64,000 nt of DNA from Escherichia phage EcWhh-1, in sequence record MH791409.1. One strand, written 5' to 3'. The position numbers and the translations under genes are program-made. Below the pieces are notes generated by a model. That model searched no databases and was not told the DNA's origin. It saw only the letters and a list, made by a program, of their open reading frames with translations. Below are positions 5,502-25,989 of this stretch, piece by piece. The first letter of the stretch is position 1, and each line of letters opens with the position of its first letter.

Positions 5502-5503
5502 AC

Positions 5504-5764
5504 TTATTTTTGAATTTTATCTAGCCATTTACCAAGTTTAATCATTTCCTTGGTGGCTTTTTCCATACTTCTGAATTTAACCAGTAAAGGTTGGGCATCA
5601 ACACCCATAACTAAGCTGGTTACAAGACTATGTTCACCTACAAGCCATAATGAATACGTTTGGATATCAAGACCGTAATTTCGGTCTTTATGAACTCGTA
5701 CACCCATCACTTCAAATTTCTCACTGGCTTTTTCTACTGCATCCAGGAAATCATCTTTAGTCAT
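5504..5764 (-). CDS. hypothetical protein; start taken at internal Met MTKDDF
   Basis: ORF-track frame 5504..5827; ATG at 5764 abuts the stop of the upstream ORF. Confidence 0.45.
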
Positions 5765-23299: not shown

Positions 23300-23404
23300 T
23301 TACTTTTTAAAGTGGGCCGCTATTAAACCTATAGCTAAGCCTGTTGCCAGGCCTAGGATAACAGCAAAGATACAGAGTAGCAAGAACTCGACTCCAAGGC
23401 TCAT
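23300..23404 (-). CDS. 34-aa hydrophobic peptide (single predicted TM helix)
   Basis: ATG overlaps the gene 52 stop (ATGA); translation MSLGVEFLLLCIFAVILGLATGLAIGLIAAHFKK; below the ORF-track size cut-off. Confidence 0.5.
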   Translation of the reverse strand: MSLGVEFLLLCIFAVILGLATGLAIGLIAAHFKK

Positions 23405-24780
23405 AGAGCCTCCAAATCTTTAACATACTCAGTTACAACATCAGTGGTTTTCCAGTATTGATGCTCTTCTTTCTTAGCCTTGGCTTCCAAAGCCAGTTTC
23501 TTAGCTTCATCGGACGTGATATGGAAAATATTCATTGCTACGAGTTTATCAGCGTATTCGCCGTAGACTTTATTACCGGCTAATTCTTCGGTTAAAACCT
23601 TACGGGTCTTACCTTGGATAACCACTACACCATCAATAACATCTTTGATAAATGTGGCTTTAGCCAATGCCAGTTTGAAAGCTTCTTCGGTTTCGATGAT
23701 TTTACCATCAATACGTTTTTGTACAAAGGTCTTACGGACCTCAACGAAATCACGAATCAATTCAACTACATCTTCGTAAACCTTAAGTTTACCTTTCTCA
23801 TTAATGACTGTCAGGTTTTGCGAACGACGTTCGATTAACCCGAAGTCCTTCATGATTTTCTCATGCTTCTTATTTTCTTCAGTAGGCAATTCGTATTCTT
23901 TACGAATTTTAACCTTGAAGCCGAAACCATTCTCGTCACAGTCATCATCATACGTGATGTACCCTTTGTCTTCTAAAGGGTCCAACACCTTAGCCACATA
24001 CGTTTCACGGTCGTATTTGTACGGGATTTCTATGATATGCATTTGGGTTCGAGATGTGAACTTATACGTGCCTCGTAGTTCATAACTACCCGGTTCAATC
24101 TCAACCACATCACCACGGAATTCCGGATAAGCCACCTTAGGCTTGGTTACGCGTTTTTCTTGAAGAACCTGCAATACAGCTTTCTTAACAGAATCAAAAC
24201 TATGAGGAAGAATATTAGTTGCATAACCAGTTGCAATACCGGAAATACCATTAAGAAGAACAGTAGGAATAATAGGCAGATAAAAAGCTGGTGGCTTATG
24301 TTCGACATCCGCATGAACCGGAGCATATTCTGTATCCTTATAAACTTTGGCAAAGTTACTTCCGATACGAGCAAAAATATAACGAGATGCCGCTGCTTTT
24401 TGAACCAAACGAGAACCAAAGTTACCTTGGCCATCCAACAGTGGGAAGTTGTTGTTCCAAGTGTTAGCCATCAGAGCACCTGCTTCTTGAGCAGAGCCTT
24501 CACCATGGTGATATCCAAGGTCGGCTACACCACCTGCAATAGAAGCCAGTTTGTGGAATTTTTCTTTATTACCACGAGCCATATCAAGACAACGAGCAAC
24601 TACAAAACGTTGCACTGGTTTAAAGCCGTCAATCATATTTGGAATGGCGCGGTTTTCGACAGTATACATTGCGTAAGCCAGCGCTTCATTGTCGATAATG
24701 CTTTTTAAGTCACGACGAGTAAAAGCATCATCGTAAACATCTAAGGATTGTTTAAAAAGGGTATCAATTACATCAGCCAT
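23401..24780 (-). CDS. 52: DNA topoisomerase II medium subunit gp52 (GyrA-like)
   Basis: 459-aa ORF with GyrA/ParC-type motifs (AYAMYTVENRAIPNMIDGFKPVQR); T4 order motA-52. Confidence 0.92.
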   Translation of the reverse strand: MADVIDTLFKQSLDVYDDAFTRRDLKSIIDNEALAYAMYTVENRAIPNMIDGFKPVQRFVVARCLDMARGNKEKFHKLASIAGGVADLGYHHGEGSAQEAGALMANTWNNNFPLLDGQGNFGSRLVQKAAASRYIFARIGSNFAKVYKDTEYAPVHADVEHKPPAFYLPIIPTVLLNGISGIATGYATNILPHSFDSVKKAVLQVLQEKRVTKPKVAYPEFRGDVVEIEPGSYELRGTYKFTSRTQMHIIEIPYKYDRETYVAKVLDPLEDKGYITYDDDCDENGFGFKVKIRKEYELPTEENKKHEKIMKDFGLIERRSQNLTVINEKGKLKVYEDVVELIRDFVEVRKTFVQKRIDGKIIETEEAFKLALAKATFIKDVIDGVVVIQGKTRKVLTEELAGNKVYGEYADKLVAMNIFHITSDEAKKLALEAKAKKEEHQYWKTTDVVTEYVKDLEAL

Positions 24781-24784
24781 AATT

Positions 24785-24925
24785 TTACCATACTAGTGAA
24801 TGAATAACCATAATAACATCGGAAATAAAAAGCACAACTTGGATAAGACCGAATATTACTCCATAATACAGTGCTACCAATAAAGCAGCAAGGGCCACCG
24901 AGTAGCCCAAGATTTTCTTAATCAT
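24785..24925 (-). CDS. 46-aa hydrophobic peptide
   Basis: Translation [46 protein letters not shown]; start overlaps the stop of the upstream peptide gene. Confidence 0.5.
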   Translation of the reverse strand: MIKKILGYSVALAALLVALYYGVIFGLIQVVLFISDVIMVIHSLVW

Positions 24926-25079
24926 TTTTAATCATCTTAAGTAAACCGACAAAAGTAGAAAGAACCCAGCCAATAAACAGAAAACTTAAGAATACCGGAC
25001 CAGGGGTCCACACACCTAAAAAGAAGCAAACCGAACAGACTATAGCCGTAATAAGTTCAATAAAAACTATGATAATCAT
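24918..25079 (-). CDS. 53-aa hydrophobic peptide (two predicted TM segments)
   Basis: Translation MIIIVFIELITAIVCSVCFFLGVWTPGPVFLSFLFIGWVLSTFVGLLKMIKND. Confidence 0.5.
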   Translation of the reverse strand: MIIIVFIELITAIVCSVCFFLGVWTPGPVFLSFLFIGWVLSTFVGLLKMIKND

Positions 25080-25089
25080 ATTTTCCTCA

Positions 25090-25228
25090 TTAGCGTCCGA
25101 AGACGCCTTTAGTTTTAAGATTGTTACGATAGAACTGCATCACATGTTCGTTATGGGAATTACTCCGTAATACAGTGTTACTAATAAAGAAGAAAGGGCT
25201 ACCGAGTAACCCAAGATTTCTTAATCAT
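25090..25228 (-). pseudogene. decayed duplicate: truncated small-peptide ORF (MIKKSWVTR-stop) fused to an stp-like frame lacking a start codon
   Basis: About 75 bp near-identical to 24850-24925 but with a 1-nt deletion (frameshift); followed by a reading frame encoding [25 protein letters not shown] that matches recalled T4 Stp, with CGG where the ATG should be. Confidence 0.55.
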
Positions 25229-25374
25229 TTTTTGGTAAAGGCCTGTAGAATCAGAACAAATGCCAATATGAATTGTGGAATGGCCTGAGAAATGACCGAA
25301 GTTTCACCCGTAGTAATAGTCCAAATACCTAGATAAGTCCAAATACCCGCAGCAAAACCTTGTAAAATATTCAT
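25225..25374 (-). CDS. 49-aa hydrophobic peptide (ac-position small membrane protein)
   Basis: Translation MNILQGFAAGIWTYLGIWTITTGETSVISQAIPQFILAFVLILQAFTKK. Confidence 0.5.
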   Translation of the reverse strand: MNILQGFAAGIWTYLGIWTITTGETSVISQAIPQFILAFVLILQAFTKK

Positions 25375-25381
25375 ATTTTCC

Positions 25382-25462
25382 TCAAGGGCGTCCGAAGACA
25401 CCAGTTAATTTCAGATTATGACGGTGCCATTGCATCACATGTTCGTTATGGAAATTACTCAT
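25382..25462 (-). CDS. stp: Stp-like 26-aa peptide
   Basis: ATG overlaps the ndd stop by 1 nt (TAATG); translation [26 protein letters not shown]; N-terminal 11 residues identical to recalled T4 Stp. Confidence 0.7.
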
Positions 25463-25911
25463 TAGTAAGCCTGCAGAACGAATTTGAAGTTATCGGCCAA
25501 CATACGGTTCATTTCTTCCAGTGTCTGAAGGTCTGAACTATGATTGCGAGTGAAAGCCATTGCAATTTGACCTTTACCAAAGCCTGTAGTCAGAGGTTTC
25601 ATTTTAGAAGCTGGCACATAAAGAACTTCATACACCACACCATTCACTGCCATAGTGCGAGCTGATTGAGAACGTTTCTTACGGATGTTAGCCACAATAC
25701 CATCAAGACCTTGAGCTGAACGTTGGTTACCGACATAAAAGCGAGCGGCTACGACACGAGAATCTGCTTCACCTTTAACAAAGAAGTAGAAGCCTGGCTG
25801 AGCTGAGATTTCTTTAGAAGGCTTACCATTTTGGTATTCGCCATTCTTAACATAAGCAACAGTAGTAGCACCAGCAGACAGAACGTTACCGCGAGTCATA
25901 TAAGTATTCAT
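25462..25911 (-). CDS. ndd: nucleoid disruption protein Ndd
   Basis: 149-aa ORF; C-terminal half ([10 protein letters not shown]...[13 protein letters not shown]...AFTRNH...[21 protein letters not shown]) nearly identical to recalled T4 Ndd. Confidence 0.92.
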
Positions 25912-25960: not shown

Positions 25961-25989
25961 ATTATAACATGATTCTCGAGGTTGTAAAC
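25961..25989 (-). promoter_or_regulatory. early promoter upstream of ndd, with dyad symmetry over the -10
   Basis: GTTTAC-N17-TATAAT; the -10 is embedded in CGAGAACCAT-TATAAC-ATGATTCTCG (1 mismatch). Confidence 0.6.

Follow-up and report, generated by a model that had tools for sequence, protein, structure and literature searches.

Stp is a small peptide of phage T4 that prevents restriction by type Ic enzymes, such as EcoprrI and EcoR124I, to which it binds, an action that unmasks the PrrC anticodon nuclease in prr+ hosts. According to a published review of Penner et al. 1995 (PMC3014915), loss-of-function and suppressor mutations of Stp lie mainly at residues 4-14 and the last eight codons are largely dispensable, while the N-terminal 18 residues matter for function and hardly vary among the eight T4 relatives known at the time. 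The gene stands in T4 in the order ndd-stp-ac-52.1-52. More generally, small accessory genes of T4-type genomes are shuffled in hyperplastic regions by a process mediated by promoter and stem-loop (PeSL) cassettes (Arbiol et al. 2010, PMC2839356). Here we analyze the ndd-to-52 interval of Escherichia phage EcWhh-1 within a 64,000-nucleotide stretch of its sequence record (MH791409.1; hereafter the window, to which all coordinates refer unless another sequence is named), where an intact stp gene, stpA, is accompanied by a second, start-less stp sequence, stpB'. We propose, with a probability of roughly 85%, that two T-even phage genomes underwent a single unequal crossover, mediated by microhomology, and that this locus is the scar it left. 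Among publications naming JS98 (a phage that shares the junction described below), stp and T4-like together, none concerned this locus as far as titles and abstracts indicate.

All genes of the ndd-to-52 stretch lie on the minus strand, in the order ndd-stpA-ac49-52.1'::stpB'-53aa-52.1-52. A preliminary description, made from the DNA letters alone, had counted five tiny genes between the two anchors; four of these are intact open reading frames (ORFs), and the fifth element is a chimeric remnant. The intact genes are stpA (25382-25462), encoding a 26-residue Stp of the Gaprivervirus allele type; ac49 (25225-25374), encoding a 49-residue membrane peptide of the Ac (acridine-sensitivity) family; the resident cassette encoding a 53-residue membrane peptide (24918-25079); and gene 52.1 (24785-24925; 46 residues, DUF7396, PF24129 at 78 bits), which shares an 8-nt overlap with the 53-residue gene. 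The remnant joins roughly the first 22 codons of a 52.1 gene (52.1', 25166-25228) to stpB' (25090-25167), a T4-type stp sequence with CGG in place of ATG and an F4S substitution.

The presence of two stp-family sequences is borne out by the Pfam profile PF08133 (Nuclease_act), whose curated cutoff of 25 bits is exceeded both by stpA (55.3 bits; also phrog_6763, E 2e-19) and by stpB' (64.9 bits over residues 2-25). The T4 Stp sequence used in the preliminary description agrees with the Stp of NC_000866, and comparison with the latter places the inactive copy nearer to T4 Stp than the intact one, as had been claimed; the description was also right in calling one copy inactivated and joined to a frameshifted 5' part of 52.1. 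The two stp units, earlier put about 300 bp apart, are separated by 295 nt from start to start and align over 95 nt with 77 identities (81%), or over 101 nt at 78% in another alignment. The accompanying repeat of 52.1 is likewise real, but its extent and identity, first given as 24850-24925 and 25152-25228 at about 85%, are corrected to 24855-24929 and 25159-25232 at 89%, with 67 of 75 positions matching and one 1-nt gap in an A-run. These repeats are far beyond chance: their local alignments score 108 and 96, and 500 shuffles never scored above 33 and 24, respectively. The observation of the locus itself is therefore confirmed, with small corrections to coordinates and percentages.

An alignment across related phages, the check that had been suggested at the outset, was made with MAFFT on the ndd-to-52 interval of ten phages and resolved a single clean insertion. 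Compared with JS10, KIT01 and dhabil, the window carries exactly one additional block of 295 bp (25166-25460, minus strand), a length that matches the repeat spacing; it comprises stpA, ac49 and the 52.1' fragment, and its flanks are 93-100% identical to the same three phages. The block is bounded by an 8-nt direct repeat, GAGTAATT, at 25453-25460 and 25158-25165, and its position is ambiguous by the length of this repeat. The first copy lies in stp codons 1-4 (ATG AGT AAT T) and the second in 52.1 codons 22-24 (GGA GTA AT), at the point where 52.1' meets the resident stp. A clean 295-bp indel whose short direct repeat is found in both the stp start and 52.1 has the form of a microhomology scar. 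Recombination had already been named in the preliminary description and was the right class of event; the exchange between repeated leader sequences that it envisaged is replaced by one at an 8-nt microhomology inside coding sequence.

The 52.1' fragment begins at the ATG at 25228 and has lost one A, with AAGAAATC in place of AAGAAAATC, so that it now reads MIKKSWVTR* (25199-25228); in the MAFFT alignment it has the Gaprivervirus-type TAC codon. A candidate terminator within it, formed by the hairpin GGGTTAC..GTAGCCC and a T-rich tail, was dropped because the same hairpin, equally stable, exists in the intact 52.1.

The same junction occurs in five sequenced phages (IME281, Esco_phi_B-01, UP19, JS98 and NC-G) and in three read-archive assemblies (ERR11523140, ERR3179013 and ERR3179108), and its recovery from independent isolates and assemblies means that it is not an assembly artefact. 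It is spanned by 7 of 569 matching records. The closest relative of the region is Dhakavirus vB_EcoM_IME281, at 99.9% identity, followed by Esco_phi_B-01 and UP19 at 99.4%. Two polymorphisms distinguish the carriers: a 57-residue ORF between ndd and stpA, present in JS98 and NC-G and absent from the window, and an additional 31-nt deletion in the 52.1' fragment of NC-G, ERR3179013 and ERR3179108. All four combinations of the two are seen, which shows recombination within a few hundred bases.

The 57-residue ORF encodes a cysteine-rich membrane peptide (MRTFFVMGYLF...CFERLCKMCGIYE), lies between ndd and stp in many relatives, and overlaps the stp start. It occurs in JS98 (L001, 1879-2052), NC-G, dhaeg, UPEC01, TH40 and the metagenome contig L022, and is unannotated in several records; in the window ndd abuts stpA directly.

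A detailed comparison of these arrangements enabled us to propose a route to the present locus. In this model, the left parent would have carried a Gaprivervirus-type stp, the Ac-family gene ac49 and 52.1, and the right parent would have been an ordinary Dhakavirus with a T4-type stp, the 53-residue gene and 52.1. Strand exchange would have taken place where 52.1 codons 22-24 (TAC GGA GTA ATT) resemble the stp start (ATG AGT AAT T), resulting in the recombinant ndd-stpA-ac49-52.1'::stpB' (without ATG)-53aa-52.1-52 and a gain of 295 bp. This single event would account for the retention of both cassettes, the truncation of 52.1 and the decapitation of the resident stp, with the ATG of stpB' lost because of where the crossover fell. 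Later homologous exchange would then have produced the variants in the 57-residue ORF and the 31-nt deletion. The architecture needed for the left parent, ndd-(57aa)-stp-ac-52.1-52, is that of the Gapriverviruses UPEC01 and pEC-M719, and that of the right parent is the rule in most Dhakaviruses (JS10, KIT01, dhabil and EcoM_005), which have a single stp in the order ndd-stp(25 aa, T4-type)-53aa-52.1-52. The phage now carries both membrane-peptide cassettes, and the locus presents itself as a clear example of ordinary phage mosaicism, not as a new system.

In common with PeSL-mediated shuffling, small genes have here been inserted or replaced between core genes at short repeats, and the cassettes differ among relatives. 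The difference is that an 8-nt microhomology in two coding sequences has given rise to a chimeric pseudogene. A PeSL-type exchange, which would show a strong sigma-70-like early promoter and a terminator stem-loop at the exchange points, was rejected, as a consensus scan found no promoter and stem-loop cassette at the junctions.

The intact copy has a canonical start, with the ATG at 25460-25462 right downstream of ndd in a TAATG overlap as in T4. JS98, in its annotated stp, and the Gapriverviruses UPEC01 and pEC-M719 encode exactly the same peptide, and stpA differs from the genes of these two Gapriverviruses at synonymous positions only. In tblastn searches the allele was present at an identity of at least 99% in 39 phage records, mostly Gapriverviruses, including VR5, VR7, VR20, VR25, VR26, SP18, the TH series and the carriers of the junction, and the variant is invariant across the Gapriverviruses in the database. 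Like T4 Stp, the peptide has 26 residues and shares residues 1-11 exactly, but it differs by six substitutions (F12W, Y13H, N15H, T19L, K20T and Q26P), three of which (at 12, 13 and 15) fall among the N-terminal 18 residues and leave the other 15 unchanged. The T4-type sequence in this genome is instead stpB', without a start codon and with F4S. The working Stp is presumably the imported allele, with its translation coupled, as in T4, to the ndd stop through the TAATG. Among other carriers, the live stpA of NC-G (L004, 1852-1932) has H5Y, within the mutation-sensitive residues 4-14, and those of ERR3179013 and ERR3179108 have P26L.

The cargo of the two units was assigned to families by PHROG profiles. 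ac49 belongs to phrog_2501 (E 3.9e-20), the same family as T4 Ac, and matches the Ac-like protein of REP4 in BLASTP (E 2e-8); neither ac49 nor the 53-residue protein gave a BLASTP alignment with T4 Ac itself, and the homology of ac49 to T4 Ac is visible only through intermediates. The 53-residue gene falls into a different family, phrog_9347 (E 1e-25), occupies the slot held by ac in T4, and is found in JS10, KIT01, dhabil, AugustSocin and REP4. Like T4 ac (51 residues), ac49 directly follows stp behind the same GAGGAAAATATG start region; it is, however, very diverged and coexists with the 53-residue peptide that replaces ac in most Dhakaviruses. In the proposed model ac49 would be the imported cargo. 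Its start is the ATG at 25374, behind GAGGAAAAT; a 58-residue form beginning at GTG in the ORF list was rejected as an artefact of the first-start rule, the real gene having 49 codons for residues. An exact 12-nt repeat, AGTCCAAATACC, with copies 18 nt apart, lies inside ac49 (25318-25347) and encodes GIWT..GIWT.

These comparisons bear directly on the proposal, made in the preliminary description, that stp was duplicated in tandem within one genome, one copy diverging in an arms race and the conserved copy being silenced. Two stp-family frames 295 nt apart with a repeated 52.1 5' end are what such a duplication would leave behind, together with homologous cargo and comparable divergence along the two units. 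The cargo of the units is instead non-homologous (phrog_2501 versus phrog_9347), stpA is no novel divergent form but the peptide of the 39 records mentioned above, and stpA and stpB' differ by 19% at the DNA level, whereas the stpB'-to-52.1 segments of JS98 and NC-G differ from that of the window by less than 1% and by 2-5%, respectively. The two stp copies are nearest to the alleles of two different lineages. A duplicated locus with later divergence is therefore not what is found, and we regard this history as hardly credible, while an arms race as a cause is neither favoured nor disfavoured by these comparisons; since both the lineages and the cargo families differ, the two units would be alleles of one slot brought together by the proposed crossover and not paralogues that arose in place.

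The start-less copy tells the complementary part of the story. Over 76 nt it matches the intact stp of JS10, KIT01, dhabil and dhaeg at 75 positions (98.7%), the sole difference being the TTC to TCC change that produces F4S, which argues that stpB' is the genus's own allele with its ATG overwritten by the crossover. Across the carriers, start-less copies show F4S, V9A, N15I, T19I and G24stop against two synonymous changes, while, in our tally, 4 of the variable sites in the intact copies of both alleles are nonsynonymous and 16 are synonymous (Fisher's exact test, p = 0.023, on seven changes in three haplotypes). Purifying selection is thus not evident in stpB', with five nonsynonymous changes, including one stop, against two synonymous ones in a small sample, and both F4 and V9 lie within the mutation-sensitive stretch of residues 4-14. 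These counts show the start-less copies to be in apparent decay under relaxed constraint; the numbers are small and the direction is clear.

It could be argued that the second copy is still expressed, either from a non-canonical start or through an in-frame fusion, so that some phages make two Stp variants. In NC-G, ERR3179013 and ERR3179108 the 31-nt deletion brings the ATG of 52.1', which overlaps the ac49 stop in an ATGA, into frame with stpB', creating fusion ORFs of 35 or 33 residues with the 11-residue N-terminal extension MIKKSWATVLR. The stpB' frame of the window, however, has CGG at codon 1 and contains no ATG, GTG or TTG before codon 9, the 9-codon ORF upstream stops 32 nt short of the CGG, and a start at M10 would lose residues 1-9. 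Moreover, the fused forms have either V9A with N15I or T19I with a premature stop, and a frame-restoring deletion is expected one time in three by chance. We read these fusion ORFs, with their damaging-looking changes, as probable drift, and consider continued expression of the second copy very unlikely.

One part of stpB' may have been kept for another reason. A hairpin of the C(UUCG)G type is retained in its sequence (25092-25107, minus strand, -9.3 kcal/mol); after it comes TAATGAGGAAAATATG, with which the 53-residue gene has its ribosome-binding site and start, and we infer that the 3' end of stpB' persists partly through this hairpin and ribosome-binding site. The equivalent hairpin in the GVFGR codons of stpA (25387-25402, minus strand, -8.9 kcal/mol) lies just 5' of the ac49 ribosome-binding site. 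The same element (GGCGUC-UUCG-GACGCC, -9 to -11.5 kcal/mol) encodes the GVFGR C-terminus of Stp in T4 as well (L005, about 5503-5518), and in both stp copies of the window and in T4 it sits just 5' of the ribosome-binding site of the next gene. RNA structure may explain why GVFGR is conserved even though loss of the last eight codons is reportedly tolerated.

The T4-type stp (in stpB', JS10 and REP4) is also bracketed by a 7-nt direct repeat, TAATGAG, with one copy at the ndd stop and stp start and the other at the stp stop and ribosome-binding site (in the window, minus strand, the corresponding sites are at 25460-25466 and in the region 25382-25390, and also around stpB'); the 3' end of stpA shares only TGAG. 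Through this repeat stp could be lost precisely, and the scar of REP4 described below may have come about in this way.

Related scars are found elsewhere among the T-even phages. The Gapriverviruses TH40 and EAWsc9 have the order stpA-52aa-[52.1 5' piece::3' half of stpA]-ac-52.1, in which the 52-residue protein is a member of the 53-residue family and the dead stp copy has the same allele as the live one. In the Tequatrovirus REP4 and the metagenome contig L022 (ERZ27235398) the order is stp-53aa-ATGATTAAGAAATCCTATATTTAATAATGAGGAAA-ac-52.1, where ATGATTAAGAAATCCTATATTTAATAATGAGGAAA is a short scar joining the 52.1 start to the stp tail and ribosome-binding site. All of these share with the window the plan stp-X-[52.1 5' piece::stp remnant]-Y-52.1, with one Ac-family and one 53-residue-family gene. 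They differ from it in that the 53-residue-family gene comes first; furthermore, the remnant in TH40 and EAWsc9 starts from codon 10-12 and comes from the same allele as the live copy, and in REP4 nearly all of stp is deleted. Each sampled genome with both an Ac-family and a 53-residue-family gene has a 52.1'::stp' scar between them, and no such scar was seen in the sampled single-cassette genomes. This pattern is what unequal exchange between stp-X-52.1 units would predict, and it argues that the common outcome would be the gain of a second membrane peptide and not a change of Stp. The REP4-type scar is unique to REP4 in the phage database, and a scan of IMG/VR for it gave no match.

The scars lie at about 1444-1550 in TH40 (L025) and at the same coordinates in EAWsc9 (L026), where 43-55 nt of 52.1 are joined to stpA, and ATGATTAAGAAATCCTATATTTAATAATGAGGAAA lies at about 893-925 in REP4 (L008) and about 744-780 in L022.

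The scars of TH40 and EAWsc9 also inform the possibility that the change of allele was itself selected, with a Gaprivervirus-type Stp that differs in target range or trigger, for instance by acting on other type Ic enzymes or by activating PrrC less strongly, and silencing of the T4-type copy being advantageous on prr-like hosts. Both alleles are under strong purifying selection and Stp is a known double-edged trigger. Moreover, stpA departs from T4 Stp at residues 12, 13, 15, 19, 20 and 26, three of these changes falling within the N-terminal 18 residues that are reported to be important and nearly invariant (PMC3014915). Conversely, the loss of the ATG follows automatically from the crossover position, and the presence of the same allele twice in TH40 and EAWsc9 means that a scar can arise with the allele unchanged. 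In addition, base modification generally shields T-even DNA from type I restriction. We therefore think a selected swap unlikely. Distinctly unlikely, in our estimation, is the more elaborate version in which the JS98/IME281 lineage swapped its Stp selectively, for a peptide (W12, H13 and H15) with another specificity towards type Ic restriction enzymes and PrrC-like abortive-infection sensors, and the silenced copy and the deletions now provide standing variation in a defence-triggering peptide. Were this true, the silenced copy could be more than junk: a T4-type stp with its ATG would be restored by a deletion from one GAGTAATT repeat to the other, and the 31-nt deletion of the NC-G type already reattaches a start codon.

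The same repeats could be invoked to reverse the polarity of the event, the tandem form being ancestral in Dhakavirus and the JS10-type arrangement derived from it by deletion between the two GAGTAATT copies. Such a deletion would exactly restore an ATG-initiated stp, and deletions between short repeats are common in T4. The single form is nevertheless the rule, with the junction confined to 7 of the 569 records, and the single arrangement extends to Tequatrovirus and Gaprivervirus. The 52.1' fragment must come from a whole gene, and the F4S mark is seen in no intact stp. An ancestral tandem form is accordingly highly improbable.

Several points weigh against a single unequal crossover as the origin of the locus. 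Its left parent, with stpA, ac49 and an intact 52.1, was not found in blastn, protein, metagenome or IMG/VR searches; two exact-pattern scans of JGI metagenomes gave no ac49 beside an intact 52.1, and a scan of IMG/VR for the junction gave no matches other than JS98 and IME281 themselves. In blastn the inserted cassette has about 75% DNA identity to the nearest Gapriverviruses, and only the carriers reach at least 90%. Of 5.8 billion proteins only one is related to ac49, distantly (73% identity), and it is encoded on a contig of 931 bp in which the cassettes stand in the reverse order. The scars of REP4 and L022 share the 1-nt deletion in the A-run of 52.1' despite their opposite cassette order, which implies either a recurrent slip or a shared history beyond our simple model. 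Insertion by two exchanges cannot be told apart from one crossover, and the substitution test is based on a small sample of only seven changes in three haplotypes.

By analogy with T4, stpA would inhibit type Ic restriction and trigger PrrC where it is present, and phage Pnk and Rnl1 would repair the resulting tRNA damage. T4 Pnk and RnlA were looked for in the window and neither was found; the annotation of IME281, which is 99.9% identical, includes both tRNA repair proteins, RnlA and PseT, so that the lineage resembles T4 in keeping pnk and rnlA.

The locus leaves the current understanding of Stp and of phage mosaicism unchanged. Its value is as a well-resolved natural case of T-even phages stacking small accessory genes, in which the gene at the breakpoint is lost. 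That gene is stp, which encodes the classic peptide that blocks a restriction enzyme and trips an abortive-infection nuclease, and the locus therefore supplies ready natural variants with which to test the important residues of Stp: the T4-type and Gaprivervirus-type peptides, F4S, V9A with N15I, T19I with truncation, and the N-terminally extended fusion. There are also consequences for annotation, as the start-less stp should be treated as a pseudogene remnant, the real stp of IME281-like records is unannotated, and the 49-residue gene is an Ac homologue. The intact 26-codon stp is missing from the annotation of IME281 (L003, 1883-1963), UP19 and NC-G; in the JS98 record stp is annotated and the 53-residue gene is not. 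Beyond the T-even group, Stp-like frames are found for example in Rtp-like siphoviruses, K1ind2 and ZCEC5, and some of these frames carry an annotation as the PrrC activator.

On the ndd side the locus is bounded by ndd itself (25462-25911, minus strand; 149 residues, PF06591), whose TAA stop overlaps the stpA ATG in the TAATG. A promoter-like site upstream of ndd (25961-25988, minus strand) comprises TTTACA, a 16-nt spacer, TG and TATAAT, with 11 of 12 consensus matches, and is by consensus match the sole strong candidate for the cluster; a consensus scan of the minus strand from 24785 to 25462 found no site comparable to it. The right-hand anchor is gene 52 (23401-24780, minus strand), encoding the topoisomerase II medium subunit. 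Its 5' end (24721-24784) is a further mosaic boundary, with two alternative N-termini among the Dhakaviruses: a 459-residue form starting MADVIDTLF in the window, JS10, dhabil and NC-G, and a 442-residue form starting MELTSRGLK in JS98 and KIT01.

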